Assembly: GCA_963843375.1 (NCBI GenBank)
Contig: CAWJKT010000010.1
Location: 105,424-169,423, forward strand
Direction of reading: 5' to 3'
DNA from: an uncultured Pseudomonadota bacterium
GTDB taxonomy: Bacteria > Oederibacteriota > Muellerivitia > Muellerivitales > Muellerivitaceae
DNA length: 64,000 bases
Within the stretch, counting starts at the first letter, position 1. The number at the start of each line of letters is the position of its first letter. The notes under the pieces were generated by a model that was given only the letters and a program-made list of their open reading frames with translations, made no database searches and was not told where the DNA came from. This document shows, piece by piece, positions 37,789 through 43,500 of the stretch. The position numbers and the translations under genes are program-made.

Positions 37789-38067
37789 ATGCGAGTCGCG
37801 GGAGTAAGAGAATTTAGGGATCACGCGCCGGAATTTTTGAGCGGCGACGACCTTGTCTTTGTGACCAAACACGGGAAGGTTGCCAGCCTTTTGGTTCCGA
37901 TGTCTAAGTCGCAGGAACTTCCCTTGGAATTGCGGAGGGAGCTTTTAACGAACCTGGGTTCTTCCATTTCAAATCACCTCAAAAAATCAGGCGTCACTGA
38001 GCGGACGGTAACACATGACTTTGAAACATGGAGAAAAAGCCACCGGGCAAATCGCCGCGGACGCTAA
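37789..38067 (+). CDS. Phd/YefM-family type II antitoxin
   Basis: MRVAGVREFRDHAPEFLSGDDLVFVTKHGKVASLLVP N-terminus typical of Phd/YefM; the 3' end overlaps the PIN gene and the true stop is uncertain. Confidence 0.7.
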   Translation: MRVAGVREFRDHAPEFLSGDDLVFVTKHGKVASLLVPMSKSQELPLELRRELLTNLGSSISNHLKKSGVTERTVTHDFETWRKSHRANRRGR

Positions 38068-38446
38068 CGTCCTCCTTTCCGCCGCAACCGGGAGGGCCGC
38101 TCTCAAAGTTTTCATCCATTCCAACCTTGAAGTCATATCCACATCCTTGAACATCAAAGAAGTTTGGGAATATCTTCCCGTAATGGCCGCGAAATATGGA
38201 ATAGCCCCTGAACTCATGGAAAGCCAATTTCAATTATTAGCTGTCAGGGAATACGAACTCAGGGATTACCAAGGATCATTGGCTATAGCTCGAAGAAAAA
38301 TTGGAAAACGAGACCCGGATGATATTGATTTGCTGGCTTTATCTCTTGATCTGGGAATACCCCTGTGGTCAAACGATGGTGATTTTTCGGGAACCGGCGT
38401 TGAATGGTATACCACGGCTCAACTTCTTAAAAAGTTAGAGCTTTAA
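38015..38446 (+). CDS. PIN-domain (VapC-like) toxin
   Basis: Acidic PIN residues in DANVLLSA … DPDDIDLLALSLDLGIPLWSNDGDF. Confidence 0.75.
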   Translation: MTLKHGEKATGQIAADANVLLSAATGRAALKVFIHSNLEVISTSLNIKEVWEYLPVMAAKYGIAPELMESQFQLLAVREYELRDYQGSLAIARRKIGKRDPDDIDLLALSLDLGIPLWSNDGDFSGTGVEWYTTAQLLKKLEL

Positions 38447-38460
38447 TATGCGGCTTTAGG

Positions 38461-38479
38461 TGTCCACAACGGGGACCCG
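38461..38479. repeat. Repeat copy R3 (tgtccacaacggggacccg; right arm degenerate)
   Basis: 18/19 match to the R1/R4 core, 15 nt after the PIN stop. Confidence 0.55.
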
Positions 38480-38623
38480 GAATGACAGGCTACTTGTAAG
38501 GTTTTACATCTTCATTAAGGGTCATTTGGGCGACGAAAAGGCTACTGGGGCGGGCACTTGTCGCCAAAATGGATTAAGCATAAAATGCTTTTAATTGTCA
38601 GGAAGAAACCAAAAGGCATTGAG

Positions 38624-38923
38624 ATGAAAACAGCCATCCAAATCGACAAAGAAAAAATAGCTGAAATATGCCGAAGACACCATATCCAAAGGCTGTCCCT
38701 TTTTGGATCGGTCTTGCGGGATGATTTCAAGCCCGACAGCGACGTGGACGTACTGGTGCAATACCAGCCGGGCCAGGCCGTTGGTTTCGAGGTTTTTGAC
38801 ATCGAAAAGGAACTATCGGACCTGTTTGGCCATGAAGTGGATTTGGTGACTGAAAAATACCTTAATCCACGCCTTCGGGAACGCGTGCTCAATTCGGCGG
38901 AAGTCCAGTATGCAGAGGGATGA
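38624..38923 (+). CDS. Nucleotidyltransferase (MNT) antitoxin of a HepT/MNT pair
   Basis: LFGSVLRDDFKPDSDVDVLV (GSxxRGxxxxxSDxD) nucleotidyltransferase motif. Confidence 0.75.
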   Translation: MKTAIQIDKEKIAEICRRHHIQRLSLFGSVLRDDFKPDSDVDVLVQYQPGQAVGFEVFDIEKELSDLFGHEVDLVTEKYLNPRLRERVLNSAEVQYAEG

Positions 38924-39248
38924 CCGGGTTTATATCGGTCATATGTTAGATACGGCCAAAAAAGCCATCCTGAAAATTCAAGGCCGGAAACAAGAAGAGT
39001 GCGAAGCGGACGAGGATTTTTGCATCGTCCTGGCCCATTACGTTCAAACTTTCGGGGAGGCCGCCCGACATGTAAGCCCCGCCTAACAATCCGCTCACCC
39101 CAATATTCCCTGGGAAAAAATCATCGGGACGCGCCATAAAATTGTTCACGATTATTTGAGCGTGGATTATGGGGTCGTCCTGGGGGTTGTCTTCAGGGAA
39201 TTTCCACCGTTAATCCCCATCTTGGAAAAATACCTGGCCGAGATTTAA
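38910..39248 (+). CDS. HepT (DUF86) toxin; apparent frameshift near 39080
   Basis: MQRDDRVYIGHMLDTAKKAILKIQGRKQEECEADEDFCIVLAHYVQTFGEAARHVSP… then, in another frame, …HPNIPWEKIIGTRHKIVHDYLSVDYGVVLGVV… (HepT Rx4HxY-type C-terminus); 14-nt overlap with the MNT gene. Confidence 0.65.
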
Positions 39249-39302: not shown

Positions 39303-39392
39303 CCTTGAACAAAGAAAAAGAACTGATTTGGCGGTCTGAAATGTGGAGTCTCTCGATTGCGATTTCTGGAAAAAGGTCGTAGGATTTAGGTC

Positions 39393-39743
39393 ATGCAAAA
39401 ACTGATTTTGATAATTCAACGAATGGTCTTGGTGTTTGGGTTCTTGGTGTCCCTGGTGCCCTGTTATGCTTGTCAGCAAGAATCAACCCCTATGAAGGCT
39501 TGTTCTATGTGCCACATGGAGCTTCCGATGAGTTGCTGCCATCACTCCAAGCCGACGGATCCCTTGTGCCAAATTGTGAACCAGCCGGCAGTTACACTTT
39601 CCTCAGTAAATCCGTCGATTGCGGCCACTACGGTGACTGCAAAAAGAATATTTCAACCGCCGTATTTGCCGATATTTAAGGCGGCTCCGGTTATCCAAAT
39701 CGTTGAATCTCCTCCACGAAGTTCTCCTGTCCTTAGAATCTGA
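39393..39743 (+). CDS. Small exported Cys/His/Met-rich protein (putative metal-binding)
   Basis: Signal-peptide-like N-terminus (…MVLVFGFLVSLVPCYA|C…); mature region CQQESTPMKACSMCHMELPMSCCHHSKPTDPLC has 8 Cys plus His/Met clusters. Confidence 0.55.
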   Translation: MQKLILIIQRMVLVFGFLVSLVPCYACQQESTPMKACSMCHMELPMSCCHHSKPTDPLCQIVNQPAVTLSSVNPSIAATTVTAKRIFQPPYLPIFKAAPVIQIVESPPRSSPVLRI

Positions 39744-39824
39744 TCCATTCCTTTTGCGGTTGTGAAAGCGAAAGCCGGTTGGCTTCCGCTTAATTGCGCT
39801 TTTGCGCTCAAAAGGAGTGGGACC

Positions 39825-41198
39825 TTGAAAAGCTTAAATAAGTACTCATCCGATTTTTTACCTGTACTTGGGCGGTTTTACCGCCCAAGTACACGACTTC
39901 TGCTATTGCCAGTCCTGACGGCTGTTTTCTTCATTTCACCCTGTTTTATTTCGGGTCTTTGGGCCGACTCGATGATGGACAAAATGATGCCTTCCATGAA
40001 AGAAGACGGCATCCTTTTGAATCCTACCCCAGACTTAGGTGGGATGGAACTGATGGACGTGGATATGCAGATGGTCATGCCCTTCGCCTTGCCCCACATG
40101 CCCATGAGCATGCTGATGCTTCACGGCTATGGTTTTGGGGAATGGATCACGGAAGACGGTGCCCGTGGCCGTACGGCTTTTTCAGGACCCGACATGTTCA
40201 TGGCCGATCTTGGAACGACCCTGGATGACCATCAATACCTCAACTTGGACTTAATGCTGACCAGCGACCTTTGGGCTGTGCCTGCCGCAGGAATCCCCGA
40301 ACTCCTGCAAATCGGCGAGGACCAGGCCAACGGCCAGCCTTTTATCGACGCTCAGCACCCACACAGTTCACCCATCATGGGCTTAACTCTCAGCGACACC
40401 TTTACCTTGGACGCAAGTGATAAAAGTGCCCTTAAATTATTCGTTGCGCCCCGGGGCGAAAGTACCGACGGGCCAATCGCTTTTATGCACCGGATTACAG
40501 GCATGGTTAATCCTGACGTGCCTTTGGGACACCATATCGGCCAAGACGTAGGTCACATTACGAGCACCGTTTTGGGCGAGTCGCTAAAACTGGGTAGCTT
40601 CCATATCGAGTCCTCGGTTTTTAACGGTTCGGAACCCAACCCTACTCAGGTGGACCTACCCATCGGCCCGATCAACTCAGTGGCAGTCCGGGGCATTGAG
40701 GAATTTGCACCGAACATCATGCTCATGGCTTCTTACGCCTGGGTGGGTACGCCCGAGCCGGGCATCGCCAATGACCAGCGCTATTCCGCCTCCCTTTACA
40801 CGCACACCCTACTTAGCGACACATGGACTTTTCATAACACACTTATCTATGGGGGTATTACCAATATCGACCACGTATTCCAGTTGAGTTCTTTTTTGGA
40901 TGAGTTTTTATTCAGTAACACTGTGGAAGACATATTCGCGCGCGTCGAAGTACTTCAACGCACACCGAATCAATTGGATATCCCCGACATTCCTAACGGC
41001 AATACGGGCCAATGGGTGAGCGCTTTGACGTTGGGGTACAGCCATCAGCTTGAGGCCTGGGATGGATGGGAATTGAGGGCGGGATTTTCCGTGACCAACG
41101 ACCAGCTTCCCGTGGACTATCAGGCATCTTATTCAGGAAACCCCTTTACCTATAAAGTGTTCTTCCAGTTGGGAGGCACCCAGTCTTATCAGCTTTAA
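39825..41198 (+). CDS. Met-rich outer-membrane protein, CopB/PcoB-like (putative copper export/resistance)
   Basis: TTG start 7 nt after an AAGGAG RBS; signal peptide (…RLLLLPVLTAVFFISPCFISGLWA|DS); Met-rich motifs MMDKMMPSM and MELMDVDMQMVMPFALPHMPMSMLMLHG; long C-terminal region with beta-strand-like alternation. Confidence 0.55.
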   Translation: MKSLNKYSSDFLPVLGRFYRPSTRLLLLPVLTAVFFISPCFISGLWADSMMDKMMPSMKEDGILLNPTPDLGGMELMDVDMQMVMPFALPHMPMSMLMLHGYGFGEWITEDGARGRTAFSGPDMFMADLGTTLDDHQYLNLDLMLTSDLWAVPAAGIPELLQIGEDQANGQPFIDAQHPHSSPIMGLTLSDTFTLDASDKSALKLFVAPRGESTDGPIAFMHRITGMVNPDVPLGHHIGQDVGHITSTVLGESLKLGSFHIESSVFNGSEPNPTQVDLPIGPINSVAVRGIEEFAPNIMLMASYAWVGTPEPGIANDQRYSASLYTHTLLSDTWTFHNTLIYGGITNIDHVFQLSSFLDEFLFSNTVEDIFARVEVLQRTPNQLDIPDIPNGNTGQWVSALTLGYSHQLEAWDGWELRAGFSVTNDQLPVDYQASYSGNPFTYKVFFQLGGTQSYQL

Positions 41199-41239
41199 GC
41201 GAGCAGTGATTTTAAATAAATAAAAAAAGGGAGCGGAAA

Positions 41240-41608
41240 ATGAAAAAGGCAATGATGATTTTGTTGGCGGCGACGTTGATGGTTTTAGCGAGCGTTAAAT
41301 TATGGGCTCATGGAGATGATAAAACATCCGATCAAAACTTGACAGGGGAAGTGGTCTGCCTTAACTGCTATTTGGCGCATGGGGGACAAGGGAATGTCCA
41401 TGTCAAATGCGCGAAACAATGTTTTGTCAAGGGTTTGCCGGTTGGTTTGAAAGTCGGGGAAAAACTTTATTTGTTGGTGGGGGAAAAACACGGAACCGCC
41501 AATAAGATGATGGCTCCCTATGCCGGGAAACAGGTTACGGTTTCCGGCCATCTTTTTGAGCAAGAGGGAATGAGTATGTTCGAGGTTGAAAAAGTTAAAA
41601 AAAATTAA
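41240..41608 (+). CDS. Exported Cys-rich periplasmic protein of unknown function (CxxC…C…C)
   Basis: Signal peptide MKKAMMILLAATLMVLASVKLWA; VCLNCYLAHGG…VKCAKQC. Confidence 0.55.
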   Translation: MKKAMMILLAATLMVLASVKLWAHGDDKTSDQNLTGEVVCLNCYLAHGGQGNVHVKCAKQCFVKGLPVGLKVGEKLYLLVGEKHGTANKMMAPYAGKQVTVSGHLFEQEGMSMFEVEKVKKN

Positions 41609-41676: not shown

Positions 41677-42558
41677 TTGGCCGTGACCCGCTACTTTACC
41701 AACAAACAACTATTAAACCCTCCCATCAAACGTGCAGCCTATTCGGATCGCACCGCCTGGATCATGTCACAATGCTCCGAATTGGCCTATGTAGAAGAAC
41801 CTGTTTTGTTGAAGAAGAACTTGGCTGAAGGGGATTTCACCCTTCTCAAAACATTCGTCTACCAACCCAAGCGCATGAACGCCTACCTGGCCCTATCTAT
41901 CAAGCACAAGTTGTCCGTATTAGCTTTTAAGGGCACTGTACCTTCCGAATGGCCCACGGTTCAGGTTGATTTGGATTTTCGCTATTACCACACGAAAAAT
42001 GGGGTTTTTCACCAGGGATTTTATGATGCTTTCAAAGCTATGGAAAAACCCATCAACCGAAACCTAGGGTTAGTGCGGGGACTGCCCATTTACATTACCG
42101 GACATAGTCTTGGAGGCGCATTGGCGACCATGGCGGCCATGAACCTGACCGAAACCGACCGAGTGGCAGCCTGTTACACTTTCGGTGCGCCCCGCATTTG
42201 CGACCTGAAAACCATCATCCATTTTTACAAAATACCCATTTATCGGGTGGTCCATGCCGACGATATTGTACCGTCCCTGCCGCCGCCTTCAATGTTCGGA
42301 GGCTATGCCCAGATCGGCGACCTACGCTATATTACCGATAATTTCGAGTTGATCCCCGGTAGCGCGGCGGTTTGGTTGCGCTTATGGCTTCAAATTAAAA
42401 GCTTCCTCCTCTTGCGTTGGAAGAATTCTATTGCGGATCACATGATCGACTTTTATGCAAAGATTCTGCAAAGGATTGCCGAGGACAGAGAAGAACGTCG
42501 ACTGCGCCATAAATTCGGGAAATTGGCTTCAAATATATTTGCAGCAACTAAAAAATAG
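41677..42558 (+). CDS. Lipase class 3 (alpha/beta hydrolase) family protein
   Basis: Nucleophile elbow GHSLGGALA and VVHADDIVP typical of the Lipase_3 family. Confidence 0.8.
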   Translation: MAVTRYFTNKQLLNPPIKRAAYSDRTAWIMSQCSELAYVEEPVLLKKNLAEGDFTLLKTFVYQPKRMNAYLALSIKHKLSVLAFKGTVPSEWPTVQVDLDFRYYHTKNGVFHQGFYDAFKAMEKPINRNLGLVRGLPIYITGHSLGGALATMAAMNLTETDRVAACYTFGAPRICDLKTIIHFYKIPIYRVVHADDIVPSLPPPSMFGGYAQIGDLRYITDNFELIPGSAAVWLRLWLQIKSFLLLRWKNSIADHMIDFYAKILQRIAEDREERRLRHKFGKLASNIFAATKK

Positions 42559-42651: not shown

Positions 42652-43218
42652 TTATTTTGAAACGGCAGCCTGGATGTCAGCGTCGAAATCTTCTGGTTCA
42701 ATTTTCGTAACGATCCTTTTTATGGGATGGCCATCCCGGTCGATCAGGAATTTTGTGAAATTCCATCCGATGTCCAGTTTTCCATCCGGGTCCGGTTCCG
42801 AGGTTTTAAGGAACTTGTAAAGAGGATTGGCATTGTCCCCGTTGACTTCAATCTTATCGAAGAGAGGGAATGTCACGTTGTATTTGCTGGTGCAAAAGGT
42901 CTTAATTTCTGCGTCCGTTCCCGGTTCCTGTTCCTTGAATTGGTTGCAGGGGAATCCCAGGATGGCAAAGCCTTTTCCCTTATACTTCTCATATAGCTTT
43001 TCCAAACCGGTATATTGTGGTGTATGGCCGCATTTGCTGGCAACGTTTACGATAAGCAAAACCTTTCCCTTGTATTTGGAAAGGGGAACCGTATTACCAT
43101 CGATATCCTTCATCTTGAACGAATAAACCGTGTCGGATTTCGTTTCGTCGGCCAAAATGGCGGAAACCGATAGGCAGACAAGTAACGCTCCAAGAATCAT
43201 TCCAAAACATTTCTTCAT
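42652..43218 (-). CDS. Glutathione peroxidase (exported/lipoprotein-like)
   Basis: NVASKCGHT (peroxidatic Cys), LGFPCNQF, WNFTKF motifs; start taken at MKKCFGMILGALLVCLS. Confidence 0.85.
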   Translation of the reverse strand: MKKCFGMILGALLVCLSVSAILADETKSDTVYSFKMKDIDGNTVPLSKYKGKVLLIVNVASKCGHTPQYTGLEKLYEKYKGKGFAILGFPCNQFKEQEPGTDAEIKTFCTSKYNVTFPLFDKIEVNGDNANPLYKFLKTSEPDPDGKLDIGWNFTKFLIDRDGHPIKRIVTKIEPEDFDADIQAAVSK

Positions 43219-43500
43219 AATATTGCCCCCTATCCAATGGTTGATTTCATTATTACGCCATGGGTTCATGAAAAAATCTAGAGGGGTTGTTGATTTTAGG
43301 TGATCCCCTTGAACCGAAATGTAAATGGTTTCACATAATTTTACCTTTAATTGACTTTCAAGTTTCAGGATTATTAATACAATGCTTAGAAAAGGTCATT
43401 TATTGTCGGTAGAATTTCGATACTTTCGTCAAAACGACACTCGCCTGATTAATGAATCGTCTAAAGCTTACTATCAACATTTCACTTAGATCAGGATAAT

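Follow-up and report, generated by a model that had tools for sequence, protein, structure and literature searches.

The locus described here lies in the window, a 64,000-nt stretch of DNA from an uncultured bacterium (contig CAWJKT010000010.1 of assembly GCA_963843375.1), and consists of three genes read on the forward strand, designated ORF1 (39393-39743; 116 aa), ORF2 (39825-41198; a 457-aa precursor) and ORF3 (41240-41608; 122 aa). A first-pass annotation, made from the letters of the sequence, had described them as co-directional genes for exported proteins that might together handle metal ions, and the first part of that description was borne out: the reading frames are present, and each product begins with a Sec-like N-terminus, recognizable by eye from a basic n-region ahead of a run of 12-20 hydrophobic residues. 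The signal peptides of ORF2 (predicted, residues 1-47) and ORF3 (residues 1-23) both close, again by eye, with LWA followed by D or H. The start of ORF2 was corrected. The longest reading frame over this gene runs from a GTG codon at 39762 to 41198 and would encode 478 aa; the start is instead assigned to the TTG codon at 39825 because a GGAG Shine-Dalgarno sequence lies 7 nt 5' of it, the database protein P0001 (457 aa) begins there, and an ATG codon aligns with it in two related loci (L092 and L095; loci of relatives are designated here by L numbers), whereas the GTG at 39762 is not kept. ORF1 and ORF2 are separated by 81 nt. ORF3 begins 41 nt past ORF2, with its own Shine-Dalgarno sequence (GGGAG), and because of this short gap and the lack of a terminator-like site between the two genes, it is probably co-transcribed with ORF2. 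As the first-pass annotation had it, none of the three products belongs to a named family: searches of Pfam and NCBIfam at E <= 0.1 left all of them unmatched, with two sub-threshold matches of ORF3, to DUF4431 and DUF5818. Each of the three has conserved homologs (694 for ORF2, 25 for ORF3 with itself counted, and 24 cluster representatives for ORF1), and the observation therefore goes beyond chance.

ORF1 carries seven cysteines in its 116 residues, arranged as C24xxC27, C37xxC40, C48C49H50H51 and C59; the Cys and CCHH motifs reported earlier are present, the supposed CxxxxC being a CxxC. The resulting Cys/His/Met cluster extends over residues 24-59 (39462-39569). Searched exhaustively with a profile, 1.8 billion representatives yielded only 24 relatives, nearly all of 113-122 aa (range 108-127, with one 166-aa entry bearing an over-long annotated N-terminus), and a metagenome scan returned one short contig. 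The alignment of the 24 displays a basic and hydrophobic N-terminus, with K3, R10 and a 12-residue hydrophobic core conserved, an invariant PCxxC right after that core, a CCH-type motif, and a Cys at the C59 position. C24, C27 and C49 are invariant across the relatives, and C59 is found in at least 90%. A weakly conserved stretch then leads to SPPRxxLxLRI at the exact C-terminus; the chain ends with LRI in all 24 relatives and has PP among its last 15 residues in 19. In ORF1 itself this Pro-rich basic tail reads SPPRSSPVLRI and, together with the stop codon, occupies 39708-39743, and translation is proposed to pause on it. The last conserved Cys stands 57 residues from the C-terminus in 15 of the 24 and 55-58 residues from it in 22, across a linker whose sequence is barely conserved. 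A fixed spacer of ~57 residues would roughly span the ribosomal tunnel plus the translocon, and would place the Cys cluster in the periplasm while the tail is being decoded.

A 13-nt anti-Shine-Dalgarno arm, UCCAUUCCUUUUG (39744-39756), starts at the first base past the ORF1 stop codon and is predicted to pair with CAAAAGGAGUGGGA (39808-39821), which contains the GGAG of ORF2 (39814-39817). In the predicted fold of the 81-nt spacer (minimum free energy -36.7 kcal/mol, z -2.76), this closing helix masks the ORF2 Shine-Dalgarno sequence and encloses two small inner hairpins (39766-39791 and 39796-39807). The duplex between the two arms is computed at -20.1 kcal/mol, as against -10.6 +/- 2.6 kcal/mol for shuffled arms. 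An ORF1-like gene with 59-89% identity lies 5' of an ORF2 homolog in L092, L095 and L096, so that the pair recurs in four lineages, the window included. The same closing helix is predicted in these three loci with duplexes of -24 to -26 kcal/mol, equalled by none of 1000 shuffles. The spacer is conserved at 91%, compared with 85% for the flanking coding DNA. At the DNA level, window positions 39356-41201 match L092:2196-4044, from a sister lineage, at 84.6%. This homology covers ORF1, the spacer and ORF2 only and ends at the ORF2 stop codon, and the ORF1-ORF2 pair thus behaves as a two-gene cassette within differing flanks. In other loci, a predicted Shine-Dalgarno helix stands ahead of three different downstream genes, with differing sequences and spacer lengths. 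The 165-nt spacer between the ORF1-like gene of L085 and a YtkA-like gene contains CCUUUUUGAG, which pairs with CUCAAAAAGG (0.4% of shuffles equal), and in the 93-nt spacer that precedes an OEP gene in L003 the helix is part of the minimum-free-energy fold. No Rfam family reached its gathering score anywhere in the 64-kb window, and scans for promoters and terminators gave results like those for shuffled sequence.

These features recall CutF of Rhodobacter capsulatus, a small Sec-exported protein with a Cys motif (CxxxC) and a Pro-rich C-terminus. When metal slows its co-translational export, the ribosome can open the stem-loop in which the Shine-Dalgarno sequence of the downstream cutO gene is hidden (PMC9973294). 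CutF-like proteins, which together with DUF2946 leader proteins include CopL, CruR and CzcI, were collected by a rule set that asks for a length below 150 aa and a signal peptide, for PP somewhere in the last 15 residues, and for a gene close by on the same strand; the downstream gene lies within 1000 nt, mostly less than 100 nt away, and usually serves metal homeostasis, with OEP, CusA, CusB, TonB-like receptors and PCuAC as the commonest neighbours (PMC9973294). Measured against this description, ORF1 has the length, the Cys motif, the PP tail, a downstream gene at 81 nt and a predicted Shine-Dalgarno stem-loop, its signal peptide being assigned by eye only. ORF1 and CutF share a length below 150 aa, Sec-type export (putative in ORF1), a Cys metal motif, a Pro-rich basic C-terminus and a stem-loop (in ORF1, a predicted one) that hides the downstream Shine-Dalgarno sequence; the ORF1 family, like CutF, also occurs directly 5' of metal-homeostasis genes for OEP/CusA-type pumps or a multicopper oxidase. 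The differences are that ORF1 has no detectable DUF2946 match, that its motif is PCxxC plus CCH where CutF has CxxxC, that its family ends in an invariant LRI, that the gene downstream of it encodes a predicted outer-membrane barrel of an unannotated family, and that it belongs to FCPU426, a candidate phylum other than the Pseudomonadota and Bacteroidota in which most of the listed CutF-like proteins are found (PMC9973294). ORF1, a candidate CutF-like exported leader or sensor peptide, would add to a known type of regulator a new subfamily whose phylum and target are both new.

The neighbourhoods of the ORF1-like genes point the same way. In L003 the gene lies 93 nt 5' of an OEP gene, part of a CusA/CzcA operon whose last gene is an ORF3 homolog fused to the domain HMBD. 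In L004 and L089 it heads a multicopper-oxidase locus (L004:3392-8799; L089:777-6454), in which it is followed by an antisense tatA, the multicopper oxidase, a ~410-aa protein without a Pfam match, YtkA, Haem_bd, ORF3:HMBD, and HMA or YHS. The 406-aa protein at this position in L004 was considered as a relative of ORF2 and rejected, the two having no similarity. Genes like ORF1 and ORF3 flank the metal module on both sides in the window, L003, L004 and L089. The ORF1-like gene of L004 is absent from the source annotation, and L089 contains a second one (L089:11639-12007), beside an IS-type integrase and an HMBD P-type ATPase region, which suggests several leader-controlled metal modules per genome.

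The first-pass annotation had cast ORF1 as a buffering peptide, and such a role, as a stable periplasmic or membrane-anchored Cys/His/Met peptide or chaperone acting in trans with ORF2 and ORF3, would suit its Cys-rich composition, the weak lipoprotein-signal matches of 5 of the 24 family members, the co-occurrence of ORF3-like genes in four loci, and the position of the ORF1-like gene in L004 and L089, where it is not directly 5' of a co-directional gene. It is hard to square, however, with the invariant C-terminus, the unconserved spacer of fixed length (55-58 residues) and the anti-Shine-Dalgarno arm right after the stop codon. A bufferin or metallothionein identity was also rejected, no model of either kind matching ORF1, and the profile of the ORF1 family matched no sequence in the PDB. 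ORF1 is probably not a metal buffer; we regard that role as improbable, and a CutF-like leader or sensor fits better.

The product of ORF2 is a predicted outer-membrane beta-barrel. As the first-pass annotation had proposed, a Met-rich N-segment follows the signal peptide (residues 49-100; 39969-40124), with 14 Met in 52 residues (27%), compared with 2.7% Met in the window's other ORFs and six Met in the next-richest 52-residue stretch of any of them. The barrel proposed in the same annotation is supported by an AlphaFold2 model (pLDDT 81, pTM 0.78) with ~16 long strands, in which even-numbered turns are short and two long loops hold His motifs. An alignment of 28 diverse homologs established that the Met-rich core, MEVWDVxMGMxMPLPMxxMPMxMLMLHG, is family-wide, as is the motif PRGESTDGP…HRxTGxxNPDxPLGHHxGQDVGH. 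The first long loop (residues 147-183; 40263-40373) contains DAQHPHSSP, with D175, A176, Q177 and P179 invariant and H178 and H180 conserved in at least 90%. The second (residues 213-248; 40461-40568) contains the HRxTGxxNPDxPLGHHxGQDVGH portion of the longer motif and, from the DSSP strand order, would occupy the loop-3 position of 16-stranded porins. The 694 homologs, all unnamed, come from FCPU426, Oligoflexia, Bdellovibrionia, Myxococcota and some gammaproteobacterial metagenome-assembled genomes.

The first-pass comparison of ORF2 with CopB/PcoB did not hold up. ORF2 has no match to PF05275 at E <= 0.1, alignment with Klebsiella PcoB by hhalign gave a probability of 0.18%, and the model has ~16 strands where PcoB, whose PDB structure is the subject of PMC9210255, has 12, so this identity was rejected. 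ORF2 (as modelled) and PcoB/CopB do have in common an outer-membrane beta-barrel, a Met/His-rich N-terminal region and metal-resistance contexts; they share no sequence or profile similarity, ORF2 is not beside a PcoA-type oxidase, and its Met segment is conserved and takes on partial structure in the model, whereas the N-terminal domain of PcoB is disordered and poorly conserved. The resemblance is architectural only. The direction in which PcoB transports is itself disputed, both import and efflux having been argued (PMC9210255, PMC12509749).

The best Foldseek matches of the model in the PDB are general 16-stranded porins (OmpF/OmpC/Omp32/BpsOmp38), which it resembles in strand number and in the long loop at the loop-3 position. 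These matches, with TM ~0.48 (top 0.49, 8% identity) and 7-11% identity, are weak; ORF2 has no porin Pfam match, the profile of its family matched no PDB sequence, and it has an extra N-terminal Met-rich element and His-rich loops that the porins lack. On the model, ORF2 and the general porins share a fold class, not a family. Their likeness raises the further idea that ORF2 is a low-permeability replacement porin that limits influx under metal stress without forming a metal-specific channel, and induction by a metal sensor would suit such porin swapping. Yet the family-wide Met/His motifs and the operon fusion with metal chaperones and regulators argue for direct handling of metal, and we consider a replacement porin very improbable.

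Calling of ORFs and clustering of neighbours in 78 ORF2 homolog loci separated an Mla-linked group, taken up below, from the remainder. In the 59 non-Mla loci, with 216 genes within two positions of the ORF2 homolog, the commonest Pfam families were YHS (7), E1-E2 ATPase (7), HMA (6), HMBD (6), CsoR-type repressor (5), MauE (5) and DUF305 (4), followed by OEP, MerR, Cation_efflux, Haem_bd and ACR_tran; the multicopper oxidase was not among the commonest neighbour families. Some ORF2 homologs overlap a CsoR gene or an exported HMA gene by 1-4 nt, and a recurrent metal cluster lies within four genes in at least 21 of ~54 non-Mla loci. The neighbouring RND pumps score as members of the CusA/CzcA family, and the ATPases are of the CopA type (L027, L054) or the Cd/Zn type (L001, L003, L022). 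In Bdellovibrionota-type genomes, the ORF2 homolog keeps company with CsoR, HMA, CopA-type ATPase and CusA/CzcA genes. Copper-type and Zn/Cd-type ATPases both occur near relatives, alongside CusA/CzcA pumps, and what was first proposed for the locus, specificity for Cu(I)/Ag(I) and a function in export, can stand only as provisional. In L053, L063, L068 and L070 (e.g. L068:527-7140), a Bdellovibrio-type synteny was seen in which a CusA/CzcA pump, a 135-aa protein, OEP, a 141-aa protein, an HMA-MauE fusion and the ORF2 homolog succeed one another; the 135-aa and 141-aa proteins have no Pfam match.

ORF3 bears the VCLNC...KCAKQC sequence noticed in the first-pass annotation. It forms part of a Cys/His cluster at residues 40-61 (41357-41422) made up of C40, C43, H47, H54, C57 and C61, all but the first of which are invariant in the family. 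The AlphaFold2 model (pLDDT 83) is an OB fold into which two helices carrying these residues are inserted, and Foldseek found only weak OB-fold matches, YgiW among them. ORF3 is in this respect a predicted exported OB-fold protein comparable to CusF and YgiW/BOF, which are likewise small exported OB folds, and its relatives close CusA/CzcA-type operons, a position that one would expect of a periplasmic metallochaperone. In contrast to CusF, however, ORF3 matches no CusF Pfam profile (CusF_Ec left it unmatched at E <= 0.1), its candidate ligands are Cys and His on the inserted helix pair as opposed to Met2-His-Trp, and most of its relatives are fused to HMBD. This domain (PF19335) forms the C-terminus of 20 of the 24 other homologs, so that the ORF3 of the window corresponds to the uncharacterised OB-fold part alone; a family profile matched the PDB via HMBD only, a domain that also matches the N-terminal domain of Cu P-type ATPases. 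All five of the independent ORF3-homolog contexts examined are metal systems. The homolog lies directly 3' of an RND permease in L003 (CusA/CzcA type), L087 and L091, and in L004 and L089/L090 it is the last gene of the operon for multicopper oxidase, ~410-aa protein, YtkA and Haem_bd, where a divergent tatA lies upstream and HMA, YHS or an HMBD-ATPase is close by. Neither ORF2 nor the OB-fold part of ORF3 belongs to an annotated family, and the link of both to metal is indirect, though well supported.

Taken together, the genomic contexts of the relatives of all three genes support a metal-handling module. The reading that we favor, with a probability of about 0.6, is that the locus is a self-contained metal-stress unit in which a CutF-type leader gates the ORF2 barrel and ORF3 serves as a metallochaperone or buffer. 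ORF1 would be exported co-translationally, so that its Cys/His/Met cluster would already be in the periplasm as the SPPR…LRI tail, a fixed 55-58 residues further on, is still being decoded by the ribosome. Binding of metal to the cluster would slow export and translation of the tail, and the ribosome would pause over the 13 nt past the stop codon. A ribosome paused there would cover the anti-Shine-Dalgarno arm, freeing the ribosome-binding site of ORF2 and allowing ORF2 to be made, with the co-transcribed ORF3 probably expressed after it; expression of the barrel would in this way be induced by metal. In the outer membrane, the Met-rich N-segment and His-rich internal loops of ORF2 may form a metal-binding path for soft metals, and ORF3 may act in the periplasm as an OB-fold Cys/His metallochaperone or buffer of the kind that accompanies heavy-metal RND pumps and multicopper-oxidase operons. 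As the first-pass annotation remarked, standard cop/cus/pco partners are missing: a comparison of ~25 flanking ORFs with Pfam (28-49 kb) found no metal ATPase, multicopper oxidase, RND pump or metal regulator, and the metal gene clusters of the related loci have no homolog anywhere in the window. The missing regulator would be explained if ORF1 is itself the sensor and leader peptide that controls translation of ORF2.

Several observations weigh against this reading. The trio is not a conserved unit: ORF3 homologs travel with other metal modules, no ORF3 follows ORF2 in L092, and a homolog of ORF1 or ORF3 was present in none of the 78 ORF2 homolog loci from genome contigs. Covariation in the Shine-Dalgarno helix is nearly nil, with a single G-U to G-C change among the four close sequences (the set comprised four ORF1-ORF2 intergenic regions that are ~91% identical, L003 being misaligned by MAFFT), and support for the helix is therefore thermodynamic and positional, not evolutionary. 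The duplex in L003 is marginal, 12% of shuffles being equally good. None of the 24 ORF1 relatives matches DUF2946 (PF11162), the Pfam family of CutF, at E <= 1, nor does ORF1 at E <= 0.1, and homology of ORF1 to CutF is therefore unproven. The antisense tatA that intervenes between the ORF1-like gene and the multicopper oxidase in L004 and L089 means that short-range unmasking of a Shine-Dalgarno sequence is not universal for the ORF1 family. The ORF3 of the window ends before the HMBD that most of its relatives possess, and its four Cys could be plain disulfides. Finally, a neighbor-joining tree nests the window's ORF2 in an Mla-linked FCPU426 clade, the remaining members of which have mlaE-mlaF-mlaD, and not metal genes, as their translationally coupled partners. 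Comparison of genome neighbourhoods, a check suggested with the first-pass annotation, has thus given a divided answer, with metal genes near many relatives and the closest relatives of ORF2 in mlaEFD operons, a non-metal context.

This last point underlies an alternative in which ORF2 is the outer-membrane partner of an MCE lipid transporter (MlaE-MlaF-MlaD-needle), or an outer-membrane lipid-asymmetry enzyme. In that case the window copy would be an ortholog or paralog that has been displaced, and the conserved His, Ser and Asp would serve catalysis or lipid handling and would not be metal ligands. Sixteen FCPU426-type loci share the housekeeping synteny L9-DnaB-Alr-MlaE-MlaF-MlaD-[ORF2 homolog]-…-RadA-IspD-IspF-GltX, and in all 12 in which the MlaD gene was identified the start of the ORF2 homolog falls -47 to +41 nt from the stop of MlaD. 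The adjacent MlaD carries a helical-needle domain (L005-L018 and L093, e.g. L093:3507-7317), and these mla-linked proteins, at 57-81% identity, are the closest relatives of the window's ORF2. Both the abutment of needle-domain MlaD genes and the nesting of the window copy within the clade speak for a lipid-related role. Precedents for such a partnership exist: the Mla-like TGD1/2/3 of chloroplasts work with the barrel protein TGD4, and in E. coli Mla and the barrel enzyme PldA cooperate. On the other hand, the whole block from L9 to GltX is syntenic in FCPU426, and adjacency to mla may therefore reflect general synteny. Outside FCPU426, moreover, members of the family with the same motifs overlap CsoR or HMA genes and follow Cu ATPases and HME-RND pumps, and in the window and three other lineages a Cys-rich CutF-like leader precedes ORF2 as a putative control. 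The window ORFs that were checked included no Mla genes. We judge the lipid-transport alternative unlikely, while giving it more weight than the other two alternatives. The neighbourhoods and the tree therefore tie the ORF2 family strongly to metal in several phyla and, in the phylum of the window, to MCE, this second link being unexplained.

Where an FCPU426 homolog overlaps or abuts the MlaD stop, the arrangement may in its own right point to an outer-membrane partner for the MCE transporter. It is enticing to speculate, if at long odds, that the ORF2 family is an unrecognised class of outer-membrane conduit that docks on periplasm-spanning machines. In FCPU426 it would supply an MlaD-needle MCE transporter with its missing outer-membrane end. 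In the window, as in Bdellovibrionota, the barrel would have been recruited to heavy-metal export, in the window under the control of a new subfamily of nascent-chain metal sensors with a fixed ruler of ~57 residues.

Directly 5' of ORF1, the interval 37789-39086 contains two toxin-antitoxin-like pairs, the first a small ORF with a PIN_2 protein (37789-38446) and the second a nucleotidyltransferase (38558-38923) with a short overlapping ORF (38910-39086), which suggests a variable region. An AT-rich gap of 68 nt follows ORF3, then a class-3 lipase gene on the forward strand (41677-42558) and, on the minus strand, a gene for a glutathione peroxidase with a signal-like N-terminus (42652-43269).

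If the favored reading is correct, CutF-type sensing would extend to a candidate phylum and to a new class of target, an outer-membrane barrel, and an exported nascent peptide would report the metal content of the periplasm to its own ribosome. The fixed spacing between the Cys cluster and the C-terminus is a testable prediction on the geometry of the ribosomal tunnel and translocon. The analysis also flags ~700 unannotated barrels with Met/His motifs as a candidate outer-membrane part of copper and heavy-metal homeostasis in Bdellovibrionota, Myxococcota and FCPU426, at a step of metal efflux, passage across the outer membrane, that is poorly understood. The coupling of the closest ORF2 relatives to mlaEFD poses a separate question, namely how MCE systems reach the outer membrane in those phyla.

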